Below are positions 5,037 through 31,679 of a stretch of 64,000 nt of DNA, one piece after another. The position numbers were made by a program, and so were the translations under genes. Every line of letters begins with the position of its first letter. Within the stretch, counting starts at the first letter, position 1. The notes below the pieces were generated by a model, which did no database searches, was not told where the DNA came from, and saw only the letters and a list, made by a program, of their open reading frames with translations. The DNA lies in assembly GCF_048403405.1 (NCBI RefSeq), contig NZ_CP183129.1, one strand, 5' to 3'. This stretch comes from Escherichia coli (GTDB lineage: Bacteria > Pseudomonadota > Gammaproteobacteria > Enterobacterales > Enterobacteriaceae).

Positions 5037-5411
5037 ATGAAAGACATCGATACTGAAACCCGGAATAACACCGTGGCGGATGATGTGACGGCAGGTGAGG
5101 ATATGGCTGTCGAACGTGGCGTAAAACTGACCCGACCAATTGAGCGTGGTGGCGAAAAAATCACGTATGTGGAGATCACCGGGGCTATTGAGCAGGCTGG
5201 ATCCCTGCGTGGTCTGTCGCTGTCTGATGTGCTGAATCTGAAAGCGGATACCATGTTTACGCTGTTGCCTCGCGTGACCTCGCCACGACTGGATGAAGTG
5301 ATGATTAAAAAAATGTCGTCACGCGATTTTATTCAGTTGTGCGCTGTGGCTGTAAATTTTATGAGCGAGCCAGACTCTGGCGCGAAGAGCGTGCAGGAGA
5401 CGGCAGCGTAA
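5037..5411 (+). CDS. E: Tail assembly chaperone E (zero-frame product)
   Basis: ORF between tube and tape-measure genes, the position of P2 gene E. Confidence 0.75.
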   Translation: MKDIDTETRNNTVADDVTAGEDMAVERGVKLTRPIERGGEKITYVEITGAIEQAGSLRGLSLSDVLNLKADTMFTLLPRVTSPRLDEVMIKKMSSRDFIQLCAVAVNFMSEPDSGAKSVQETAA

Positions 5412-5575
5412 TCACCCTGGTGTGCTTTGAGCACATCGAAGATCTGGTGGCGGATATTGCCGCCATTTTTAACTGGTCGCCCGCCGAAATCTTCATGATG
5501 ACGCCCGGCGAAGTGGTTAGCTGGCGCGAGCGGGCGGCACTTCGCAGCGGGAATGCAGATAATGAAGACTCTTGA
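5037..5575 (+). CDS. E+E' fusion by programmed -1 ribosomal frameshift
   Basis: The -1 frame is open from 5309 to 5575 and overlaps the E frame; an A7 run (5307-5313) in ATT-AAA-AAA-ATG is a plausible slippery site; 3' end overlaps the T start, as in P2 E/E' and lambda G/GT. Confidence 0.55.
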
Positions 5576-22188: not shown

Positions 22189-23940
22189 ATGATTCAGGAC
22201 GCTTTTGTGCGCCAGCGTGCGCGACAACTTTACTGGCAGGGTTATCCGCCCGCAGAAATATCACGTCTGATGGGAATAAACCCGAACACGATTTATGCGT
22301 GGAAAAAACGCGACCAGTGGGATGAAACGCCACCCGTGCAGCGTGTCACGCAGTCCATCGATGCGCGCCTCATCCAGCTTACTGAAAAACAGAATAAAAC
22401 AGGCGGTGACTTTAAGGAAATAGACCTGCTGACCCGGCAACTTAAAAAGCTGCATGATGGCCAGCCGGATGTGATGGCCGCAGGAAAGAAAGGCCGGGCG
22501 AAAAAACTCAAAAATCATTTCACGCCGGAACAGATTGCCGCACTGCGGGAAAAAATCATCAGCAGGCTGGAGTGGCATCAGCGGGGCTGGTTTGACTCCC
22601 TGACCCTTTGCAGGGAAGCCGGGATACGTAACAGGATGATCCTGAAATCCCGACAGATTGGGGCGACCTGGTATTTTGCACAGGAAGCACTGCTGATGGC
22701 GCTGCGTGACGATGTGGTGCAACCTTATCAGCGTAACCAGATTTTTTTGTCTGCGTCGCGTCGTCAGGCGTTCCAGTTTAAAAGCATTATTCAGAAGGCC
22801 GCGGCTGAAGTTGATGTGGAGCTGAAAGGGGGCGATAAAATCATCCTCTCCAACGGCGCAGAGCTGCATTTTCTCGGCACTTCTGCTGCGTCGGCACAGT
22901 CCTATACGGGCAATTTTTATTTTGATGAATTCTTCTGGGTCAGTCGCTTTGCTGAACTGCGCAAGGTGGCTGGCGCTATGGCAACCCTCAGCGGACTGCG
23001 GCGCACCTACTTCTCCACGCCATCCACCGAAACGCACGAGGCATACGCCTACTGGAACGGCGACCGCTGGAACGAGAAAAAGGCCACGCATAAACGCCAG
23101 CGTTTTTCTGTGGACTGGAAAACGCTGCATAACGGGCTTATCTGCCCTGACCGGACGTGGCGGCAAATTGTCACGCTGGAAGATGTGGTTAATCACGGCT
23201 GGAAACACACCGATATTGATGAAATTCGTGATGAAAACACCGAAGACGAGTTCCTCAATCTCTATATGTGTGAGTTTGTCCGCGAAGGGGAATCGGCATT
23301 TAACCTGAATATCCTGATTGGCTGCGGTGTTGACGGATACGACGACTGGAAAGACTGGAAACCTTTTGCTCCCCGCCCGATGGGGAATCGCCCGGTATGG
23401 ATTGGGTATGACGCAAACGGCAGCAGTGGCAACGGCGACAGCGGCGCTGTGTCCGTGGTGGTTCCTCCGGCTGTTCCTGGTGGCCGTTTTCGAACGGTGG
23501 AGACGCGACGCGTTCAGGGGCTGGAGTTTGAAGAACAGGCCAGAGTCATTGAAGAGTTCACGTGTCGCTACAACGTGGAACACATCGGCATTGATGTGAC
23601 GGGCGGGAACGGGGAGGCTGTTTATCAGATAGTGAAACGGTTTTTCCCTGCCGCTATTCCGTACACCTTCACGCTGTCATCAAAACGGTCGCTGGTACTG
23701 AAAATGCTGCAAATAATGCGTGCCGGGCGGTGGGAATACGATCGCGCCGAACGCGAGCTGGTCGCGGCCTTTAACGCCGTGCGTAAGGTGAAAACACCGG
23801 GCGGCTTTATCACTTACGAAACGGACCGCGCGAGGGGGATCAGCCACGGCGACCTTGCGTGGGCAACCATGCTTGCTGTCATTAACGAACCAATTGGCGG
23901 CGAAGGAGAAAACGAGCGTTTCACGGTTATGGAGTTCTGA
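22189..23940 (+). CDS. P: Terminase large (ATPase) subunit P
   Basis: 583 aa; N-terminus ...RARQLYWQGYPPAEISRLMGINPNTIYAWKKRDQWD as in P2 gpP. Confidence 0.9.
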   Translation: MIQDAFVRQRARQLYWQGYPPAEISRLMGINPNTIYAWKKRDQWDETPPVQRVTQSIDARLIQLTEKQNKTGGDFKEIDLLTRQLKKLHDGQPDVMAAGKKGRAKKLKNHFTPEQIAALREKIISRLEWHQRGWFDSLTLCREAGIRNRMILKSRQIGATWYFAQEALLMALRDDVVQPYQRNQIFLSASRRQAFQFKSIIQKAAAEVDVELKGGDKIILSNGAELHFLGTSAASAQSYTGNFYFDEFFWVSRFAELRKVAGAMATLSGLRRTYFSTPSTETHEAYAYWNGDRWNEKKATHKRQRFSVDWKTLHNGLICPDRTWRQIVTLEDVVNHGWKHTDIDEIRDENTEDEFLNLYMCEFVREGESAFNLNILIGCGVDGYDDWKDWKPFAPRPMGNRPVWIGYDANGSSGNGDSGAVSVVVPPAVPGGRFRTVETRRVQGLEFEEQARVIEEFTCRYNVEHIGIDVTGGNGEAVYQIVKRFFPAAIPYTFTLSSKRSLVLKMLQIMRAGRWEYDRAERELVAAFNAVRKVKTPGGFITYETDRARGISHGDLAWATMLAVINEPIGGEGENERFTVMEF

Positions 23941-24986
23941 TGAGCAGAAAAAATAAAAAAGTGCGCATGAGTTCACGCATTGATCTCGCTGATGCGCTCA
24001 GGAAAGAATCATCGCTCAGTGCATTCACATTTGATGGTCCTTATCGCCTGACCGGGCATGACCTGCTGGACAATATGTACTGTGCTGATAACGGGCGGTG
24101 GTATGAAACCCCGGTGGACTGGTACGGTCTGGCAAGAGCCGCCCGGCAAACGTCCTGGCATCAGTCTGCGCTTTACTTTAAGCGCAATGTATTACTCGGT
24201 TGCTACATCCCGCACCCGCTGCTTTCCCGGCAGGATTTCTCGGCGCTGGCGCTGGACTGGTTTGTGTTCGGTAACGCATTCCTTGAGCTTCGGAGCAATA
24301 TGCTCGGCGAACCGCTTAAATTACGGCACGCCCTGGCGAAATACATGCGACGCGGAAGCGATCTTGAATCATGGTGGTATGTGCAGGATGGCAAGGACGC
24401 GTTCCAGTTTCGCCCTGGCAAAGTGTGCCACCTGATGAATCCGGATATTAACCAGGAAATCTACGGCATGCCGGAATATCTTGGCGCATTACTCTCGGCC
24501 AGCCTTTCTCATTCGGCGGACATGTTCAGAAAACTGTACTACGACAACGGATCCCACGCCGGGTGCATCATCTACATCGGTGCAGCGCAGGTAAACCGCG
24601 AAAGCATGGACTCCCTGAAAGAAACGTTACAGGGTGCGCGTGGTGGTGGTGCATTTAAAAACGTGCTCATTCATGCGCCCAACGGGGGCAAAGAAGGGGT
24701 GCAAATTTTGCCGTTCCAGCAGATCACCGCAAAAGATGAGTTCATGAATGTTAAGGCGGCATCCCGTGATGATGTGCTGGCTGCGCACCGCGTTCCGCCG
24801 CAACTGATGGGGGCGATGCCGGGCGAAAAAAGTGCGTTTGGTGATGTGGAGAAGGCCGCGCGGGTTTACGCAATTAACGAGCTGATGCCCGTCATGGAGG
24901 CCATGAAGCACATCAATGACTGGCTTGGCGAAGAGGTGATCCGCTTTAACCCTTACGCACTGTTAGACACCCAGCCCACATCCTGA
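23940..24986 (+). CDS. Q: Portal protein Q
   Basis: 348 aa; ...NGRWYETPVDWYGLA...RVPPQLMG...GDVEKAARV...EEVIRFNPYALL as in P2 gpQ. Confidence 0.9.
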   Translation: MSRKNKKVRMSSRIDLADALRKESSLSAFTFDGPYRLTGHDLLDNMYCADNGRWYETPVDWYGLARAARQTSWHQSALYFKRNVLLGCYIPHPLLSRQDFSALALDWFVFGNAFLELRSNMLGEPLKLRHALAKYMRRGSDLESWWYVQDGKDAFQFRPGKVCHLMNPDINQEIYGMPEYLGALLSASLSHSADMFRKLYYDNGSHAGCIIYIGAAQVNRESMDSLKETLQGARGGGAFKNVLIHAPNGGKEGVQILPFQQITAKDEFMNVKAASRDDVLAAHRVPPQLMGAMPGEKSAFGDVEKAARVYAINELMPVMEAMKHINDWLGEEVIRFNPYALLDTQPTS

Positions 24987-25013
24987 CGCGCTTCGCTTGT
25001 CTGCTGCTTCGCC

Positions 25014-25036
25014 GGGGCATAAAAAATTTATGCCCC
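25014..25036 (+). terminator. Hairpin downstream of Q
   Basis: GGGGCATAAA-aaa-TTTATGCCCC inverted repeat just after the Q stop. Confidence 0.4.
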
Positions 25037-25289
25037 GACTCTCCAGCTCCTGTATCAGTCAGATAATTTCACGACGCTTTCCTGCTGATTGCCATCATCG
25101 ACAGTCAGACTCTTACGCAATCCCACCGCGTTGACTGCATGTTCTCGCCGTCTCAGTGCGATTTTGACGGCCTTACCTTTCACCCCATCAAATCAAAAGC
25201 CCTCACGTCTTTTTCACGCTCAGCGTGAGAAATACAGCCATTCTGTTGTGTCTCTGCGACATCGTTCAGGGGATGCTATTTACCCCCTG

Positions 25290-25325: not shown

Positions 25326-25537
25326 AAAGCGCGTTTTTTTGTGCACGCACGGATCCTTGACGGATCCAGCCGCCATGCGGGCCGGAAGGGTAAAAAGTCG
25401 TTCAAAAAAATTGTGCAAATTTGTGCACTTTTGTGCAGGTAAGCATGCCTATATATTTGACCGTGGCTTGCCTTTGATGTAGTTTATACGTCACAAAAAC
25501 CACAAAACGTGGTTATGATTTCTATGAGGGGGTTGAT

Positions 25538-25573
25538 ATGAAAAAAATGTATGATGAATTTGATGGTTTCTAA
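25538..25573 (+). CDS. Candidate 11-codon mini-ORF (MKKMYDEFDGF) upstream of the AT-rich cassette
   Basis: GAGGGGG ribosome-binding site 6 nt upstream of ATG; followed within 20 nt by a strong intrinsic terminator; TATGAT -10-like hexamer at 25513-25518. Confidence 0.35.
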   Translation: MKKMYDEFDGF

Positions 25574-25593
25574 GCTACGTTGACCTCTAATGA

Positions 25594-25620
25594 GGCGGGG
25601 ATTTGCTCCCCGCCTTTTTT
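25594..25620 (+). terminator. Intrinsic terminator / candidate attenuator hairpin
   Basis: GGCGGGGA-tttgc-TCCCCGCC stem followed by T6, 15 nt upstream of the next gene start. Confidence 0.6.
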
Positions 25621-25634
25621 ATGGATGAAATAGG

Positions 25635-26132
25635 ATGAACCCAATAACACTACAAATCATCAGCAATGCTATTGTTCTGCTTGGCGTTTTGGTTGCCATT
25701 GGAACCATTATCTACAATGTGCGTACCGCAAAAAAAACTCAAACGGCCAACTTTCTTTTTGAGAGTCGGCAAGATATGCAATATATAGAGTCATTGCATA
25801 CCCTGAAACAAGTGCATCGTTCAGGCAAATCATTTCGTTCTTATGTTTTTCCTTGTGATGGTTGCATAATAACAGATGAAGAAATGGCCGAGCGTCGAAA
25901 ATTTCAATATATTTTAAATTTTTACGAGCGAGTTGCTGTAAGTATTCGTGAAGGTATTTATGATGAAAAAATGATAAAAAGAACATCTTACACAACAGTT
26001 GTAGAGACATATGATATTGCCGAGCCATTAATTAAAGCAATCAGAGAAAGCATTAATTCGGATACTACATATCAAGAATTCGAATGGTTAGTAAGAAGAT
26101 GGAAAGCTAATCCTTTACGGAAAAACAAATAA
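25635..26132 (+). CDS. Hypothetical protein, single N-terminal transmembrane helix plus ~130-aa soluble domain (unassigned family)
   Basis: 165-aa ORF in strongly AT-rich DNA, where long open frames are unlikely by chance; N-terminal hydrophobic helix ITLQIISNAIVLLGVLVAIGTIIY. Confidence 0.75.
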   Translation: MNPITLQIISNAIVLLGVLVAIGTIIYNVRTAKKTQTANFLFESRQDMQYIESLHTLKQVHRSGKSFRSYVFPCDGCIITDEEMAERRKFQYILNFYERVAVSIREGIYDEKMIKRTSYTTVVETYDIAEPLIKAIRESINSDTTYQEFEWLVRRWKANPLRKNK

Positions 26133-26171
26133 TGTTTTACCCTTTAATTTACAAGTAACACAGGGGGAAGT

Positions 26172-27014
26172 GTGACACAGAATCCGTTTTCATTTTATGA
26201 CTTTTTGGGCTATCTAATTCCAGGTGGGTTATTCCTGTTTATCCTTTTTTTGTTTTCTATTGAAATTAACCCTGTTTATATAGAAGGTATTCTTAACCAT
26301 ATCCTGAAATATAAAGAAATAATAAGTGTATTTATATATGTGGCATTAATCGTTCTATCATATATTTCAGGTCACTTCATATCTATTCTATCATCCTGTT
26401 TAATTGAAAAATACATGAACAGTAAACTTGGGTATCCTTCAATTTATCTGTTTTCTAAAAGAAGCTCCCTGAAAATAAAACGACATAATACTAAGTTCAG
26501 TATAGTTAATTTTATTCGTGGAGTTTTTTTATTTCCTGTATCAGCTTTTGATAAAGCAGAACATCATAAAACCACACTGCATTCTATACTTATTAAAGTC
26601 TTTTGGCCGCAAATACGAGATGGTTATATAAATGTTTTTTCTGTATCTACGCTATATCGACGTAAGGGCTTGAGGGGCAATCTTTTTCGCCTTGCTTATC
26701 ATTATGTGTATGAACATTCTAAAAATCATCAGGTGAAAATGCAAAACTATGTTGCTTTGTATGGTTTTTGTAGAAACATTACATTTGTTTTTCTCGCTTC
26801 AGTCTGGTTGCTTATGTTCCTGCTCCTTCTATCCTTTTTAATAGATATAAATATCAGACTGTTACCTTTTTGTTTTCTTCTCTTGTTTTGTATTGCTGTA
26901 TCCCGAGTATTTTATTATGGTTTTGTTAAGTATTATCGCCGCTATTCTCTTGAGGTTTTAATGGCATTTGCGGTACTTCAGCACGATAAAAAAACTTCGG
27001 CAATTTCATCATGA
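26172..27014 (+). CDS. Hypothetical polytopic inner-membrane protein (unassigned family)
   Basis: 280-aa ORF, GTG start after CAGGGGGAAG ribosome-binding site; several long hydrophobic segments at the N- and C-termini; AT-rich; 39 nt downstream of the preceding gene. Confidence 0.75.
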   Translation: MTQNPFSFYDFLGYLIPGGLFLFILFLFSIEINPVYIEGILNHILKYKEIISVFIYVALIVLSYISGHFISILSSCLIEKYMNSKLGYPSIYLFSKRSSLKIKRHNTKFSIVNFIRGVFLFPVSAFDKAEHHKTTLHSILIKVFWPQIRDGYINVFSVSTLYRRKGLRGNLFRLAYHYVYEHSKNHQVKMQNYVALYGFCRNITFVFLASVWLLMFLLLLSFLIDINIRLLPFCFLLLFCIAVSRVFYYGFVKYYRRYSLEVLMAFAVLQHDKKTSAISS

Positions 27015-27023
27015 TTTGAAACA

Positions 27024-27046
27024 TTGGCACCCTGTTAGCAAGGGTG
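27024..27046. terminator. Hairpin between the convergent cassette and parR-like gene
   Basis: GGCACCCT-gttagca-AGGGTGCC perfect stem. Confidence 0.4.
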
Positions 27047-27097
27047 CCAGAATGATGTGTTGGTCTGTATTTTATTAGTTCACATACAATTATCAGA

Positions 27098-27412
27098 TTA
27101 TTCTGGGAATAAGGTCTGAATATTCTTTTTTATTCTATAAAAATTGCATTCAACTCCGCTAGGCTGATTATCCTGGTATGTTTCCTTGATGCTAACGGTA
27201 TTGAAGGGGAGGTTGTCCTCTGGCCATTCGGCCATCCAGTAGGCAAATGCTGGGTTGCGCTTTATGAGCGCTAGCCCAGCCAGAAAGGCCGCGCGTTGCG
27301 CGCGGCTGCGTTCGGAGGCTGGTAGGCTATCGAGGTAATTGCACGCCTCCTGTTCACTCTTGACGGCGGCGGGCTTCAGATAGAAACTTATCCGTCTGGT
27401 TGGTGTCGTCAT
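27098..27412 (-). CDS. ParR/StbB-like partition adaptor
   Basis: Start trimmed to MTTPTRRISFYLKP...; YLDSLPASERSRAQRAAFLAGLAL resembles the R1 ParR motif as remembered; lies directly downstream of the ParM-like gene. Confidence 0.65.
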   Translation of the reverse strand: MTTPTRRISFYLKPAAVKSEQEACNYLDSLPASERSRAQRAAFLAGLALIKRNPAFAYWMAEWPEDNLPFNTVSIKETYQDNQPSGVECNFYRIKKNIQTLFPE

Positions 27413-27416
27413 TGGT

Positions 27417-28376
27417 TTACTCCTTGTCCATTGCGTACAGCCCATTAACCAGAGCAAACTGTGGCACCCCGTCCGCGATGAAAGTCGCATTAACTCCGCA
27501 GACTTCGCGGATAGCGGGTGCCACAATCTCCGCCCCTCCACCGACAACCATCACCCGCCCGTAACCCGAAAAAACCGCCAGCGCGCGGATCACGCGTTGT
27601 TTCAGTGTTTCTTCCTTTTCACGAATAACCGCCATCAGGCTGGCGTAATGCGCGTCATTGTGGATGTGCTGGCGCAGCCAGGCTTCATCATGGCGATGTT
27701 CGATAATGGTATTGGCGATGTGGTGACTGGTGCGCATACCGTTAGTGGCCATCACCGACAGTACGGCATCGGCCATCAGGGAAACGCCTACGTGTGGATC
27801 GCAAAACACCTGGCTGATACCTGCCAGTTGCCCTTGAACCTTTGCCACATCCAGCGTGGTTCCGCCTAAATCCACAATCAGCAGGGATTCAAACGGACTC
27901 ATGTCAGCCAGTGCTTTAAAGCCAGCCGGAATGGATTCAGGCATAACCCGCACGTTACGGATAGTGAATGCTTCGCCGTTCTGGTACTCCACCGAGCGCA
28001 TAACGTTCGCTTTTTTGCGGTTGATGTTGGCCATGTCCGGCTGTGCGTTTGTCTCGAAATACTCGCTCAGTGGCAGGGTGACAACCACATCCACCTCTTG
28101 TGGCGTGATGCCTGATTTGACCAGCGCGTGATGAATGGCGATTACATTCACATCGCTGTACTGGTATTGCGTGTCGGTCGTCTGGACAAAGCGATCGCTG
28201 ACCGGATCAAAACCATAGCGCACGCCATCAAGCATGTAGTTCGCGGGCTGCATGCCACCGAACGGCGCAGACCATTCCGACTTGAAGCTGTTCGGGCTGA
28301 TGGCGTTGCGGCGTTCGCCATTCTCAGTCCATGCCAGCTTGATGTTGGTGGAGCCGTCGTCGATACAAATTTTCAT
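27417..28376 (-). CDS. ParM/StbA-like actin-type partition ATPase
   Basis: 319 aa; IDDGSTNIKL, ISPNSF, QYSDVNV..HHAL, RKKAN, PESIPAG, LIVDLGGTTLD, GVSL, VVGGGAE and LVNG motifs as in plasmid R1 ParM (from memory). Confidence 0.8.
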   Translation of the reverse strand: MKICIDDGSTNIKLAWTENGERRNAISPNSFKSEWSAPFGGMQPANYMLDGVRYGFDPVSDRFVQTTDTQYQYSDVNVIAIHHALVKSGITPQEVDVVVTLPLSEYFETNAQPDMANINRKKANVMRSVEYQNGEAFTIRNVRVMPESIPAGFKALADMSPFESLLIVDLGGTTLDVAKVQGQLAGISQVFCDPHVGVSLMADAVLSVMATNGMRTSHHIANTIIEHRHDEAWLRQHIHNDAHYASLMAVIREKEETLKQRVIRALAVFSGYGRVMVVGGGAEIVAPAIREVCGVNATFIADGVPQFALVNGLYAMDKE

Positions 28377-28402: not shown

Positions 28403-28520
28403 AACCGTTTACGGGATTTTTAAATCCCGCTTTCGCCTGTTTTGTGCGCGCTTCATATATCGCGGCGCGTTTTTTGCTCATTTACGGGATTTGTGAATCC
28501 CGTTTCTGTCTGTTTTTTGT
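28403..28520. repeat. Two ~40-bp direct repeats, each with an internal palindrome (candidate parC-like centromere/operator)
   Basis: TTTACGGGATTT(T/G)T(A/G)AATCCCG...CTGTTTT occurs at 28403-28445 and 28477-28520, upstream of the ParM-like start and overlapping the 3' end of gene A. Confidence 0.45.
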
Positions 28521-31293
28521 TTCCACTGGTCAGGCCAGTCCTCAGCAGGTTTGCTTTGCGGCGGGCGCGTTCAGTGGTTTCTCTGATTCTCTGTGCGTGC
28601 TCTGCGTCACGAATGGCGCGCAGCATGTCAGAAAGCACGGTAACGGGTGTTTTCATGGTGTTCTGGACCTGCTGAAGTGTGGATGCCAGGCGTGCGGCGG
28701 CTTCGGGGTCTGATGCCCCGAGCTGTGCCAGATAGCTGGAGACCGGGTTATGGCGGATCTCCGTGCTGCTTACGCCGTGATTACGGCTCAGGCGCTGCCA
28801 GAGCTGCGTGATTCGGCTGTCCGGGCGGGCATCCGGTTTGCGTACAATTTCAAATCCCTGCGGTGCAATGATGCTGCCGTCAACGTACAGACTGCCGCCC
28901 CGTAACAGGTGCTGCATCTGTTGTTCACCGATATGCAGGCCGAGAGATTCAGCAGACTCCCGCCATTCTTTAGCGAGTAATTCGTGGTTATCAGGCAAAG
29001 GCCGCTGCTGTTTGCGGCTCTGTGTCCAGCTCTGCATTTCATCGCTGCTGTTTTTTGCCTGTTTGTCACGAAGCGAACGCATCAGCGCCCGGCGTTCGTG
29101 TCGTTTCAGTGAGCGCATCCATTCGTTCACTTCAACGCCGTTAGGGAGCTGCGGCCACGGTGCTGGCCGTTCTTCCGGCTGTTCTGTCCCGTTGTTGTCC
29201 GTTTCCTGTACACGGGGACAGTTATTGCCACGAGTCCAAGGGGCGGCAGGGCCGCCCTGAAGGTCAAAACCATTTTCGCGGGCGCTGTCTTCCGCTTCCG
29301 GTTTGCGTCTTACCAGCTTCCAGTTATCCGGATGCGTGCACACACGGGAGGATTCCCCGATGAGTGGTGACCAGATCCCGTAAATCTGTACGCTCTGTTC
29401 GCCGTAATCGTTCATCTCATCGGCGAGGTCGTAGGCGGTGCGAATCAGGTAGTCTTTGCGTGGAACAAGTACGCCGCCCTGTTTCTCTATGTAGGTGGCA
29501 AAACATCCGGCATCAGCGGCGGCAAGAACCGCATCCATTGCGTCATCCTTCAGCCGTTGCGGGCCTTCCGGGTTGCGTGCCATCTGGCTGGCAAGGCGGC
29601 GCAGTTCACGCCATACCTGGCGGGAGGGGATGCCAAAGAACTGGAACTGGCGGACCCGGTGAAGGCGCGCCCAGCCGATGGCGCGTTCCACGCTCTCGGC
29701 CATTGATTTTCCGGTTTCGTGGTCAACGCGTGGCTTGCCCGTTTTCGGGTCGATGCCATCCACGGCACGGCTGTCCAGGTTTTTCCCGATGTAGGTGGCG
29801 ATGTAGCTGGTCGGTGTGCCTTTTGAGCCGTCGACGTACTCCGCCTTAAAGCGTGGGGTAATATCATCACCCAGCTCGTGACGATCTTCCTGAATGGCAA
29901 TATCGCGGGTGTGGGACACAATAGTGTCGATTTCTTCCGGATGAGCAAAGACCATCATATGCCAGTGCACGGTGCCGTCATGGTGAGGCTCCACCGTGCG
30001 GATGCCATACCAGCGCAGGCCGTCGCGGTTCAGTTTCTTGCGGACCGCCGCAAAAAACGTGTTAACCAGGTAATCGCTGGAGTCGCGCATGGTGGCCCCG
30101 TTCCATTTGGGATTCGGATGACCGTTCTCTGTTGTGGCGTGGTATTTTGACGGGCAGGTGACAGTCAGAAACACCGCTCTGTCGCCACGGGCTTCGGCCA
30201 GAAGTTCCAGCCCCTTCATGGTGGCCATCATTTCTGCCTTACGGTGAACCGGGTTACTTACTCCCGCGTAATACACTGTCTCGAGATCAATCGTGAACCC
30301 ATCTTCGTTTTCCAGCATGAAACTTTTCAGGAAATCGCGTGTTTTCTCGCGCTGTGCGCGAAACTCGCTTAATGCGTCCTGGCTCAGATAGGGCGATGTT
30401 TTTCTGGAAACCAGACAGGCGGCGCGGAGTTGTTCTTCTCTCCACTCGCAACGTAACAGCCACAGTTTGCGTTTCCACCATTCCGCACAGGTCAGGCGAA
30501 GGATTGCGCCCGGCAGCAGCTCCGTGTCCGGTTCGTTCCTCCGGTCTTTATCTGTTGTCAGTGCGTCATAATGTGGAGGCATGATGTGCAGGTGTAACGC
30601 CATGCGGGCCAGCATCTGATACGCCTTCAGCGTTACATCCATGGTCAGTTCGCCATCGGTCGCGCCAAAGCCATCGCAGAGTTTTTCGAAGGTGCTGCTG
30701 AACATCGCCGCCGTCATGGTGGCCAGCGTCTGTATCTGGTGTTTGTTGAGCTGCGGCAGGTAAAGCAAATCGTCCAGGCGTTCGCGTCCGGCAAGGGAGC
30801 GATAACCAGGTGTCAGCCAGCGCCCGTCAGTGCGATCCAGACGTTCGAATATTTTGCGCAGGGTTCCGCGTGCATAGCGTTCCGCCTGCCAGGTCTTTTT
30901 GCCTTTCTGACGATCGGCTTCCTGCTTCTTGCGCAGGAAAGAGAGGTGGCGGCTCAGAGGTTCTCGCAGATAACCGGGAAGCGCCTTCAGTGTGGCAAAG
31001 GCACGGGCTACCGGGTCTTGTTCTGTTGCCCGGCGCTTACTGATGATGCTCTGTGCCAGCTTTTCACGCTGTCCGGCTTCCTCAAGGGATGCCATGAGTT
31101 TTTTACCCATGGCGGATTGTGCGAAAAAGGCTTCTTCCTTCGCTTCCTGTTCTTCCTGTGCCCTTTTGTCCGCCTCAAGGTAGTAACGGATGGCGCGTTG
31201 CAGGTCGGTTTCAGTTTCCTGCCTGCGCTCCGTAAATCTGGCCGGATCAATAGCTGGTCGTGGTTCATTCCAGCTCCATGCAAACGCACTCAT
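28453..31293 (-). CDS. A: Replication initiation protein A (rolling-circle HUH endonuclease)
   Basis: Long ORF with HWHMMVF HUH-like motif and P2 gpA-like region; start trimmed to MSAFAWS, abutting the upstream gene stop. Confidence 0.85.
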   Translation of the reverse strand: MSAFAWSWNEPRPAIDPARFTERRQETETDLQRAIRYYLEADKRAQEEQEAKEEAFFAQSAMGKKLMASLEEAGQREKLAQSIISKRRATEQDPVARAFATLKALPGYLREPLSRHLSFLRKKQEADRQKGKKTWQAERYARGTLRKIFERLDRTDGRWLTPGYRSLAGRERLDDLLYLPQLNKHQIQTLATMTAAMFSSTFEKLCDGFGATDGELTMDVTLKAYQMLARMALHLHIMPPHYDALTTDKDRRNEPDTELLPGAILRLTCAEWWKRKLWLLRCEWREEQLRAACLVSRKTSPYLSQDALSEFRAQREKTRDFLKSFMLENEDGFTIDLETVYYAGVSNPVHRKAEMMATMKGLELLAEARGDRAVFLTVTCPSKYHATTENGHPNPKWNGATMRDSSDYLVNTFFAAVRKKLNRDGLRWYGIRTVEPHHDGTVHWHMMVFAHPEEIDTIVSHTRDIAIQEDRHELGDDITPRFKAEYVDGSKGTPTSYIATYIGKNLDSRAVDGIDPKTGKPRVDHETGKSMAESVERAIGWARLHRVRQFQFFGIPSRQVWRELRRLASQMARNPEGPQRLKDDAMDAVLAAADAGCFATYIEKQGGVLVPRKDYLIRTAYDLADEMNDYGEQSVQIYGIWSPLIGESSRVCTHPDNWKLVRRKPEAEDSARENGFDLQGGPAAPWTRGNNCPRVQETDNNGTEQPEERPAPWPQLPNGVEVNEWMRSLKRHERRALMRSLRDKQAKNSSDEMQSWTQSRKQQRPLPDNHELLAKEWRESAESLGLHIGEQQMQHLLRGGSLYVDGSIIAPQGFEIVRKPDARPDSRITQLWQRLSRNHGVSSTEIRHNPVSSYLAQLGASDPEAAARLASTLQQVQNTMKTPVTVLSDMLRAIRDAEHAQRIRETTERARRKANLLRTGLTSGNKKQTETGFTNPVNEQKTRRDI

Positions 31294-31679
31294 GGCTGGT
31301 ATCCCGTCACGCGCTGCCACTCCTGCGAGAAGAGGGCGGAAAGGCGGTTAAATTCAGCGGTGTATTCACTCAGCGAGGCACACCCGCCAGCAGTGCGATG
31401 CGCCAGCATTGCTGCAAATACGGAGGCCGGAGAGTCGTAATACGCCAGCAGTGATTCGCCGTGCGGTGTCAGGCAGTGCAACGCCAGTCCGTGTGGTGTG
31501 AAGTCCACGCGGTAGCAGTCGTCTACTGTGAAATAAAGGGTGTCTGCATTCTCCGGTTTTGTGGTGCGTGCTCTGTTGTCACGACCACGGATGTAGAGAT
31601 CAAATAACCCCTGAAGAACGGGAGCCAGACGGGTGTCCTGTGTGCGCACCCATCTTGTGAAGTCATGAGCGTCAATCAT
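31290..31679 (-). CDS. Hypothetical early-region protein (position of P2 B / orf80-83)
   Basis: 129-aa ORF ending at the A start. Confidence 0.55.
   Translation of the reverse strand: MIDAHDFTRWVRTQDTRLAPVLQGLFDLYIRGRDNRARTTKPENADTLYFTVDDCYRVDFTPHGLALHCLTPHGESLLAYYDSPASVFAAMLAHRTAGGCASLSEYTAEFNRLSALFSQEWQRVTGYQP

Follow-up and report, generated by a model that had tools for sequence, protein, structure and literature searches.

A two-gene membrane-protein cassette in the P2 defence hotspot of Escherichia coli: candidate chimera of two single-gene modules

The AT-rich cassette inserted beside the portal gene of this Escherichia coli prophage carries two genes, each of which occurs elsewhere without the other, behind a leader that is conserved among DUF4760 genes. 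The reading favoured here, with about an even chance of being correct, is a chimeric operon of two independently mobile single-gene modules, each able to exclude or abort phage infection. In module 1, the DUF4760 gene would be preceded by a promoter, an 11-codon leader ORF ending in DEFDGF-stop and an intrinsic terminator, and its product would cross the inner membrane once, with a helical domain in the cytoplasm. Module 2 would encode a four-TM protein with distant similarity to Csx27; its gene appears to have taken over the place of the closing terminator of module 1, and would thus be co-transcribed behind the DUF4760 leader. The anatomy, the separate occurrence of the two genes elsewhere and the conservation of the leader are shown. 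As far as can be judged from the sequence, a lysogen would make small amounts of both proteins, limited by how often transcription passes the leader terminator, and either protein by itself, at the inner membrane, could exclude or abort infection by other phages.

In the P2 defence hotspot of E. coli, only two cargoes are more frequent than this cassette. If it consists of two independent single-gene modules, then each gene should be tested alone as well as together, and the way in which DefenseFinder or PADLOC should model the cassette changes as well. The DEFDGF-stop mini-ORF, which appears to be conserved and previously undescribed, and the DUF4760 fold, a confident prediction with one good match among solved structures, the plant immune EP domain, are testable leads beyond this locus rather than established findings.

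Anatomy and insertion slot of the cassette

In the window (the whole 64-kb stretch of DNA analysed), the GC content is 0.28–0.385 across approximately 25400–27200, against 0.53–0.59 in the flanks. The host element is a P88-like (P2-family) prophage, with the insert lying between the portal/cos side and the ParMR/gpA side (Table 1), and P88 itself carries other genes in this slot. The GC dip and the variability of the slot among P88-like phages agree with the earlier note, which had described foreign, AT-rich cargo in the P2 A-to-Q hotspot, and both ORFs lie at the positions and have the lengths that it gave. Its statement that the cassette runs opposite to its neighbours is correct for the ParMR and gpA genes on the right side, but not for the terminase and portal genes, which are on the same strand.

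Homology with cassette-less P88-like phages breaks off at 25437, the end of a TTGTGCA block that is also kept in a Xenorhabdus P2-like prophage; could this block be a cos-proximal element? The right junction is the stop codon of the ParR-like gene at 27098, and the stem-loop preceding it was not called as a terminator in the terminator scan, and is kept in a diverged copy of the cassette (L143). The hairpin at 25592 resembles the P2 cos core and was considered as a cos site, but was rejected since it lies inside the variable cargo and the P2 cos 19-mer had no match at ≤3 mismatches.

Table 1. Features of the cassette and its flanks in the window (all positions are those of the whole stretch).
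Feature	Position	Strand	Basis or remark
Terminase	22189..23940	+	left flank
Portal	23940..24986	+	left flank
Left junction: three TTGTGCA copies, 10 bp spacing	25411..25437	+	pattern positions; last conserved backbone before cargo
Promoter-like TTGACC-N17-TAGTTT of DUF4760 module	25457..25485	+	by eye, DNA alignment with three solo modules
Mini-ORF MKKMYDEFDGF-stop, 11 codons	25538..25573	+	sequence; Shine-Dalgarno GAGGGGG at 25526-25532
Intrinsic-terminator-like hairpin GAGGCGGGGA/TCCCCGCCTT plus T-run	25592..25620	+	terminator scan, fold
Gene 1, DUF4760 protein, 165 aa	25635..26132	+	ORF; Pfam PF15956
Gene 2, four-TM protein, 280 aa, GTG start	26172..27014	+	ORF; family alignments; Csx27 profile matches
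Stem-loop TGGCACCCT/AGGGTGCCA 3' of gene 2, without T-run, then right junction	27026..27049	+	sequence
ParR-like	27098..27412	-	right flank
ParM	27417..28376	-	right flank
gpA-like replication protein	28453..31320	-	right flank

The cassette was found in 288 of 5426 complete E. coli genomes (about 5%). It had been proposed as an undescribed system, but the same pair is System #3, DUF4760, in Table S5B of Rousset et al. 2022 (Cell Host Microbe 30:740; PMC9122126), where it is located between gpA and gpQ, has 1102 occurrences and carries the note '1 TM in protein 1, 4 TM in protein 2'. Protein 1 of System #3 is identical to the gene 1 product, and protein 2 differs from that of gene 2 at a few residues. 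Their table of tested systems does not contain the System #3 sequences (PMC9122126), and a literature search on the two proteins found no experiment. The slot is a published P2 defence hotspot, in which activity was seen for three of eight additional systems tested and which also holds partition and toxin genes (PMC9122126), so the position itself is weak evidence of function. An anti-phage role of the cassette is plausible.

The leader and its mini-ORF

The cassette had been credited with its own regulatory leader, and a mini-ORF and a terminator-like hairpin do precede gene 1. The -35 (TTGAC) and -10 (TA(G/A)(T/A)TT) elements of the promoter-like site are kept in a DNA alignment with three solo DUF4760 modules, and we infer that this site probably acts as a promoter; a consensus promoter scan did not list it, and listed a weaker site at 25490-25519. 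A mini-ORF ending in DE[FY][DE]GF-stop, or a near variant of it, precedes nearly all DUF4760 genes examined, with residues kept while synonymous codons vary, and the motif occurs once in the 64-kb window, where shuffled sequences give an expectation of 0.00. The first regular expression matched 45 of 57 loci, after which the misses were inspected by eye and variants such as DEFEWV and DENDGF were accepted, a post hoc widening of the motif definition made with the data already in view.

The hairpin stops 14 nt before the ATG of gene 1. A hairpin search found such a structure between mini-ORF and gene in 29 of 37 distinct DUF4760 leaders; the 33 hairpins comprise 19 distinct stem sequences (4 of the 33 lie inside the coding region), and the distance from the mini-ORF stop codon is 15–47 nt. 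In the Pasteurellaceae, where the mini-ORF stop and the DUF4760 start share bases (TAATG), the two are not separated by a terminator. The minimum-energy fold of the window leader keeps the terminator, and no antiterminator pairing alternative to the hairpin was found. A helix between the Shine-Dalgarno sequence and its complement, enclosing the mini-ORF, was seen in the window but failed to generalise across leaders and was rejected: this extra helix (Shine-Dalgarno against post-stop spacer) was no better than shuffles in most of them, with 6 of 37 at p≤0.05.

The same peptide ending is present in 53 of 75 scorable phage loci without DUF4760 downstream. These sites include operon ends facing convergent genes, and one lies 127 nt after a Q-like antiterminator gene. 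The mini-ORF occurs in P2-like, lambdoid and T4-like phages, tandem-motif versions exist (e.g., MLDEFEGFDEFDGF), and in a T4-like phage it is an annotated 21-aa ORF upstream of gp47, the peptide of which gave no matches by tblastn. No Rfam family matched the mini-ORF, and no mention of it was found in the searchable literature. The chance that it is a working peptide or leader element of phages, widespread and not described before, is judged to be even or slightly lower. A 174-aa ORF (WP_000236495) located between the portal gene and the cassette in PV468777 was also considered, as a leader-preceded 'MKKYEYML' protein, and this proved to be wrong.

Two gene families, together and apart

Gene 1 matches the whole of Pfam DUF4760 (PF15956) with an E-value of 2.1e-34 (positions 2-141 of the 141-position model, residues 12-156 of the protein) and is annotated as DUF4760 in RefSeq. 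The earlier note had recognised no family for it, which holds only in that DUF4760 has no assigned function. It also matches phrog_2284, and its AFDB50 neighbours are DUF4760 proteins without exception. The AF2 model (pLDDT 94.3) has an N-terminal TM helix, in agreement with the single helix proposed earlier and with the Phobius result of Rousset et al. (1 TM), followed by an all-helical domain that is predicted to be cytoplasmic (Lys/Arg-rich stretch after the TM helix, topology by eye). This soluble domain spans about residues 45–165 and includes the invariant E98, E111, R137, E148, E150 and W156. The closest solved folds are the EP domains of EDS1, PAD4 and SAG101, at 6–10% identity and with Foldseek E-values that are not significant; a DUF4760 profile search of PDB sequences gave no match at E≤10. 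Longer DUF4760 proteins, distinct from gene 1, are listed by DefensePredictor as predicted defence genes, and this listing, the hotspot slot and the Csx27 profile matches (see below) are leads to defence. PD-Lambda-6, which is tied to these longer proteins in the DefensePredictor supplement, was discarded as a candidate, with gene 1 unmatched to it in PADLOC.

For gene 2, the polytopic membrane protein described previously is supported by Phobius (4 TM in Rousset et al.) and by the AF2 helices. It matches phrog_12528 (E 3e-71), has 1121 relatives among 50%-identity cluster representatives, and shares with them a conserved N-terminal motif, NPFSxYDFLGYLIPGG. Judged by these sequence comparisons, the family is large, without a Pfam model, and has a weak but repeated similarity to Csx27. 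No Pfam family recurred consistently among 82 relatives, and the only PDB sequences returned by a profile search were noise (growth hormone). The AF2 model, from a 15-sequence alignment, reached a pLDDT of 59.5 and was left out of the fold search because this was too poor.

Neither gene has a match to a characterised defence family in PADLOC, NCBIfam or Pfam, as had been suspected. The NCBIfam search matched neither of them, and at E≤1 PADLOC gave only PDC-S35 for gene 1 (E 0.014, partial) and Csx27 for gene 2, consistent with the earlier exclusion of Old, Tin, RexAB and Kiwa; TIR, nuclease and ATPase domains were likewise absent from the Pfam results, as was DUF4868. Both are real, conserved genes. 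With dN/dS values of 0.07 (gene 1) and 0.28 (gene 2), each from a single comparison with L143, both appear to be under purifying selection on the basis of this one sequence pair.

The two families are largely found apart. No gene 2 relative lies within 4–6 kb of any of about 55 DUF4760 loci outside the cassette, and DUF4760 is likewise missing from all of about 50 loci that carry gene 2 relatives; both genes occur together only in the E. coli cassette lineage, at 86–100% identity. DUF4760 has no conserved neighbour that could be found. It occupies the same post-portal slot by itself in other P2-like prophages, among them L106, in which terminase and portal are 99–100% identical to those of the window, and is also found alone in unrelated prophages. 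One homolog sits among core genes, flanked by nrdAB-yfaE and an aldolase gene, without any trace of a mobile element. Relatives of gene 2 are located beside int/xis and in lambdoid nin regions, in one case on the opposite strand, and one distant relative is within a dense defence island with MmeI, HEPN_AbiU2, FRG and DEAD+T5orf172 genes. These solo relatives have AT-rich upstream regions of their own, whereas gene 2 of the cassette begins 39 nt after the gene 1 stop and has none. DNA homology with solo DUF4760 modules begins at the promoter and breaks off exactly at the stop codon of gene 1, beyond which the solo modules continue into a terminator and the window into gene 2. It is this position of gene 2, in place of the terminator closing the solo modules, that points to a lineage-specific chimeric operon. 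In L143, the dS is 0.04 for gene 1 but 0.28 for gene 2, which suggests allele exchange rather than co-evolution. The proposal of a sensor/effector pair is weakened, since conserved pairing across genomes fails outside a single E. coli lineage, and the cassette is probably not such a pair. Rousset et al. catalogued System #3 without a function and as one system, but the co-occurrence data presented here do not support a single system.

A true two-component system, in which the DUF4760 protein detects infection by way of its cytoplasmic domain and switches on the four-TM protein, an abortive-infection effector that disrupts the membrane, would account for the close spacing of the genes with no terminator between them, for an arrangement kept in 1102 catalogued loci and in the diverged copy, and for the listing of both genes as one system by Rousset et al. 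It is quite unlikely, given that the pairing is confined to one closely related lineage, that both families occur alone elsewhere, including DUF4760 beside the same portal and terminase, and that the unequal dS values suggest allele exchange. Cooperation between the proteins may nevertheless have arisen within the lineage, because the pair has been kept over the catalogued occurrences and about 14% divergence of the gene 2 protein. A function other than defence is unlikely; here, the proteins would serve the prophage or host, for example, in the physiology of the membrane or envelope, in tolerance of stress, or by controlling lysis or DNA entry of the phage itself. The hotspot does house non-defence cargo, one DUF4760 homolog is chromosomal and among core genes, and the searches turned up no classical defence domain such as a nuclease, NTPase or TIR, but the distant gene 2 relative in a defence island, the similarity of gene 2 to Csx27 and the typical accessory positions in several prophage types all argue for defence.

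The leader can also be read differently, with the mini-ORF being not (or not only) a cis-acting leader but the source of a free acidic-aromatic peptide that acts in trans, with DUF4760 as its partner or target; such a peptide might, for example, mimic an acidic Phe-ending protein tail such as the SSB C-terminus. This is unlikely, even though it would explain the many copies of the same ending in loci lacking DUF4760, the tandem-motif versions, the terminator-less Pasteurellaceae overlap and the failure to find an antiterminator. Peptides of 8–13 residues are usually short-lived, a hairpin and T-run directly after the mini-ORF in 29 of 37 leaders is the layout of an attenuator, and conservation in the last six residues before the stop also fits a nascent-peptide effect on termination. 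The similarity of the DUF4760 fold to the EP domains of EDS1 and PAD4 gave rise to the idea of an anti-defence protein that would bind or sequester nucleotide-derived immune signals. This is very improbable, as the likeness is at fold level (with the low identity, Foldseek and PDB results given above), a conserved neighbourhood with a TIR or other signal-producing gene was not seen, and a membrane anchor would be unusual for a sponge. It is also very improbable that DUF4760 is a membrane-anchored EP-domain counterpart, a receptor or decoy for small-molecule immune signals whose synthesis would be gated by the new DEFDGF-stop phage element.

Comparison with known systems

Gene 2 may be related to Csx27, the membrane accessory protein of type VI-B1 CRISPR-Cas13b. 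The PADLOC Csx27 profile matches gene 2 with an E-value of 1.6e-5 and 23.5 bits (residues 6-244 against positions 4-179 of 206), and eight of ten diverse relatives also match, from position 4, which corresponds to the N-terminal motif. Matches across the family are weak (E 4e-6 to 1e-4, 21–25 bits) and could be partly due to TM composition; two of the matching proteins also match the VI-B-associated 'tm_4' model. Csx27 and gene 2 are both small, with predicted TM segments and adjoining defence genes, but gene 2 is about 75–80 residues longer than the 206-position profile, with the surplus apparently in the middle, and no cas13b, CRISPR or Cas domain was found in any gene 2-family locus examined. 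For Csx27 itself, the mechanism is not established and membrane localisation not confirmed (Smargon et al., bioRxiv 10.1101/092577).

SieB, RexB and T4 Imm, membrane proteins of exclusion and abortive infection, resemble the cassette by kind only: they too are small proteins of the inner membrane whose genes stand alone, are compositionally foreign and occupy accessory positions in temperate phages. For the cassette, there were no PADLOC matches of the Rex, Sie or Imm type, and SieB (PF14163) did not match gene 2 and matched 1 of 82 relatives weakly (E 1.3e-3). Rst_2TM_1TM_TIR of the P2-like phage AC1 (Rousset 2022) includes a TIR protein, whereas the cassette has two ORFs, neither of them TIR. 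The DUF4760 alignment compared by hhalign with the 1TM protein of that system gave a probability of 0.4%.

The EP domains of plant EDS1, PAD4 and SAG101 are receptors for TIR-produced nucleotides. They have the same fold as the predicted model of DUF4760, and any common ancestry would rest on likeness at the fold level. DUF4760 differs in having 165 aa, a TM anchor and no lipase-like (alpha/beta-hydrolase) part. No heterodimer partner is recorded for DUF4760, and the EDS1 module is regarded as a seed-plant innovation.

The DUF4760 leader has the layout of attenuators of the trpL/pheL type and of arrest peptides of the TnaC and Erm/Cat leader type, with a short, well-translated ORF, an intrinsic terminator and then the regulated gene. 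It differs from them in the 15–47 nt between stop codon and hairpin and in that it shows neither a run of regulatory codons nor antiterminator pairing, and its type of mini-ORF, unlike attenuator leaders, is also found where the same strand has no following gene. Arrest and attenuator leaders and the DUF4760 mini-ORF nonetheless share a concentration of conservation just before the stop codon.

Anatomy of the cassette and its cargo slot

The two open reading frames described in the earlier note are real and lie exactly where it had placed them (see table), and its foreign, AT-rich composition was borne out as well, with a GC content of 0.28–0.385 over about 25400–27200 versus 0.53–0.59 in both flanks. 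The opposite orientation that it gave to the cassette applies to the ParR-like, ParM and gpA-like genes on the right only, since the terminase and portal genes on the left share the cassette's strand.

Features of the AT-rich cassette, its leader and the flanking prophage genes
Feature	Position	Strand	Remarks
Capsid scaffold		-	left of cassette
Terminase	22189..23940	+	left of cassette
Portal	23940..24986	+	left of cassette
Mini-ORF MKKMYDEFDGF-stop	25538..25573	+	strong Shine-Dalgarno sequence
GC-rich hairpin and T-run	25592-25620		14 nt before gene 1 start
Gene 1	25635..26132	+	ORF, ATG start, 165 aa
Gene 2	26172..27014	+	ORF, GTG start, 280 aa
ParR-like gene	27098..27412	-	right of cassette
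ParM	27417..28376	-	right of cassette
gpA-like replication protein	28453..31320	-	right of cassette, 955 aa

The phage records nearest to the window prophage are P88-like Peduoviridae (Xuanwuvirus). In P88-like phages without the cassette, homology with the window stops at 25437, directly after three TTGTGCA repeats at 10-bp spacing, and P88 itself has two unrelated small genes in the slot, which is therefore a variable cargo slot. Of 5426 complete E. coli genomes, 288 matched the whole 1.9-kb query over at least 80% of its length, in every case on the chromosome. Two complete E. coli genomes (H24 and H25; NZ_CP019903, NZ_CP076645) carry an IS4-like IS421 inside the matching region, and the cassette copy at locus L033 is disrupted, foreign sequence (about 5220–5457) having taken the place of both the mini-ORF and the leader hairpin's 5' arm.

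TTGTGCA occurs four times in the window between 25339 and 25437, and the three tandem copies (25411, 25421, 25431) close the conserved backbone before the cargo. The block, kept even in a Xenorhabdus P2-like prophage, is possibly a cos-proximal element or one related to terminase; the window has no copy of the P2 cos 19-mer. Many related prophages have an extra minus-strand gene for a 174-aa hypothetical protein between portal and cassette (L001 5188–5712, PV468777; that of L001 is probably WP_000236495). It is missing from the window (24987–25200 compared), so the stretch right after the portal gene is also variable. On the other side, the cassette adjoins a ParM/ParR-like partition pair (StbA/Plasmid_stab_B, 27098–28376).

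The gpA–gpQ interval has been surveyed across all E. coli genomes and 169 systems curated (Rousset et al. 2022, PMC9122126). The ParM/ParR-like pair is the commonest item of that catalogue (System #1, 4592 occurrences), and was suggested to possibly permit maintenance as a plasmid (PMC9122126). The two proteins of the cassette are System #3 of Table S5B ('DUF4760', 1102 occurrences, one TM in protein 1 and four in protein 2; PMC9122126), and the cassette, which had been put forward as undescribed, is therefore already known as a catalogue item. A functional study of it was not found: its protein sequences are absent from the table of tested systems in the same paper (PMC9122126), and neither the supplementary data of Vassallo et al. 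2022 nor a preprint of 2026 on the P2/P4 hotspots, where P4 loci alone were tested, was found to mention it. The accession numbers of the two proteins had no match in the searchable literature, and a full-text search for 'DUF4760' gave a single paper, which is unrelated.

The cassette is modular

Viral contigs supplied loci of both families, to which species-representative genomes added DUF4760 (gene 1) loci and assemblies added loci of gene 2 relatives; HMMs of both families were run against every collected locus. The two genes occur together only in one E. coli cassette lineage (L001, L029–L035 and L086–L093, 95–100% identical) and in a diverged locus, L143, with a gene 2 that is 86% identical to that of the window. 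About 55 other DUF4760 loci are without a gene 2 relative within 4–6 kb, DUF4760 is missing from about 50 loci that have a gene 2 relative, and no gene of any kind is a conserved neighbour of DUF4760 among the collected loci. The two genes are not a conserved system.

Solo DUF4760 modules occupy the same post-portal slot in P2-like prophages of Xenorhabdus and in many viral contigs, and one of them, L106, has terminase and portal genes 99–100% identical to those of the window. DUF4760 is also found in unrelated prophages, and once between core genes. Solo relatives of gene 2 adjoin int/xis or lie in lambdoid nin-type regions, once on the opposite strand, and have their own AT-rich upstream regions. 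In a DNA alignment of the window, L106, L094 and Xenorhabdus L006, similarity runs from the backbone repeats through promoter and leader to the DUF4760 stop codon, and divergence sets in right after it, with a terminator in the solo modules versus gene 2 (39 nt on) in the window. Gene 1 of L143 is nearly identical to that of the window (dS 0.04) while gene 2 gives, in one pairwise estimate, dN 0.079, dS 0.276 and dN/dS 0.28; this pattern fits an exchange of gene 2 alleles and suggests recombination or faster evolution limited to gene 2.

A distant gene 2 relative of 303 aa (L145 and L146) shares an island with genes for an MmeI-type enzyme, a DEAD helicase with T5orf172, a NucS-like protein, RadC, HEPN_AbiU2, FRG and a PD-(D/E)XK nuclease.

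The leader is conserved with DUF4760

A homologous mini-ORF precedes DUF4760 in every lineage looked at: MKKLFDEFDGF in Xenorhabdus, MKKWFDEFDGF in Klebsiella, MNSIQDEYDWF in Rahnella, MQLDEYDGF in Pantoea, MRYSDEYEGL in Entomohabitans, MKGLNEGWDGF in Pasteurellaceae and MTLNEGWGG in Rhodovulum. A regular expression matched 45/57 non-redundant DUF4760 loci; by eye, the misses comprise the variants DEFEWV, DENDGF and VIGGF, one read-through allele and, for the remainder, mainly truncated or disrupted loci, the motif being widened to these variants post hoc, with the data already in view. The near-universal linkage to DUF4760 is real. All synonymous codons are in use at the last six positions while the residues are confined to D/E, E/G, F/Y/W, D/E, G/W and F/L/V/Y, which points to selection at the peptide level.

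Of 37 distinct leaders, 33 had a terminator-like structure in a hairpin search, the stems being of 19 different sequences; it lies between mini-ORF and gene in 29 and inside the coding region in four. In the Pasteurellaceae type (L023, L135, L136, L137) the stop codon of the mini-ORF and the start codon of DUF4760 overlap (TAATG), and the conserved hairpin is placed in the first 30–70 nt of the coding sequence, not before the gene; compensatory changes are seen in it among these four loci. No antiterminator alternative to the hairpin was found, Rfam gave no match for the leader, and the peptide strings had none in the searched literature. The helix between Shine-Dalgarno and anti-Shine-Dalgarno sequences that the window shows is not a general feature of the leaders.

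A degenerate DNA pattern for DEFDGF-stop (about 35 bits) gave 116 matches in IMG/VR; by chance about 1 per 3e10 positions is expected under uniform composition. Among 80 of these 116 (L149–L228), DUF4760 lies downstream in 22 and is lacking in 53, five being too short to score. The motif closes a short reading frame (up to about 80 codons) in all cases, and frames with an in-frame ATG often have only 8–14 codons (e.g., MYDEFDGF, MKDEFDGF, MLDEFDGF, MKKKRMNDEFDGF), the shortest form being M-x-DEFDGF; tandem-motif versions also exist (e.g., MLDEFEGFDEFDGF). Other contexts include P2-like hotspots beside ParMR with a different cargo gene (174–175 aa, no family match), the ends of operons that converge with a terminase gene, a site 127 nt past a Q-like antiterminator gene, comparable to the position of the lambda late-promoter leader, and an annotated 21-aa ORF upstream of gp47 in a T4-like Karamvirus (Enterobacter phage PG7; L264, 804–869). 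A GC hairpin directly follows the stop codon at about half of the non-DUF4760 sites. Since the mini-ORF recurs in phage contexts without DUF4760, it may be either a portable device made up of leader and terminator or a small acidic-aromatic peptide that has a function in its own right.

Gene products and possible function

The gene 1 product is a DUF4760 protein by its full-length Pfam match (E 2e-34) and is assigned to phrog_2284, which has no functional assignment. The AF2 model (pLDDT 94.3, 59-sequence alignment) predicts a long N-terminal helix, residues 3–46 (TM and stalk), followed by a helical bundle; basic residues immediately after the TM segment, as judged by eye, suggest that the bundle is cytoplasmic. 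Its modelled EP-like fold, resembling the EP domain of plant EDS1/PAD4/SAG101, and the conserved DEFDGF-stop mini-ORF are the most unexpected features of the cassette.

The gene 2 product matched neither Pfam nor NCBIfam and was assigned to phrog_12528. Its family comprises 1121 representatives of 50%-identity clusters (E<=1e-3), nearly all of 260–340 aa, and every named member looked up is 'hypothetical'. Strongly conserved motifs are an N-terminal NPFSxYDFLGYLIPGG, GHxxS...E, HY..E...H..K.QNYVALYGF.R and F.KFYRR..LE. The sole PADLOC match of gene 2 was the Csx27 profile (E 1.6e-5), which 8/10 diverse relatives also matched, always starting at profile position 4; two relatives matched a second VI-B-associated membrane model.

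The anatomy of the cassette, its modularity and its leader's conservation are shown. As to function, the lysogen would transcribe the operon from the conserved promoter, the majority of transcripts would stop at the leader terminator, read-through would yield both membrane proteins at a low level, and each would counter incoming phages at the inner membrane. We give this chain as a whole an even chance. Its defence part draws on the hotspot position, on the way both families behave as accessory genes, on a single defence-island context, on the Csx27 similarity and on a machine-learning prediction for relatives. A function other than defence would account for the cassette with lower probability, and we regard it as unlikely. 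The two products might instead form a true two-component system, as the 'sensor/effector pair' of the earlier note implied; that claim is probably wrong, the genes being joined only in one E. coli cassette lineage and L143, and such a system is distinctly improbable. That the cassette encodes an anti-defence binder of immune signals is the most far-fetched reading. Of the accessory or anti-phage role first proposed, hotspot cargo in a variable slot stands, and a part in defence is plausible.

The cassette is prophage-hotspot membrane-protein cargo, a known kind. Gene 2 is best read as a probable remote relative of Csx27 and not as a member, because the profile scores are low and a Cas13b context was seen at none of the loci.
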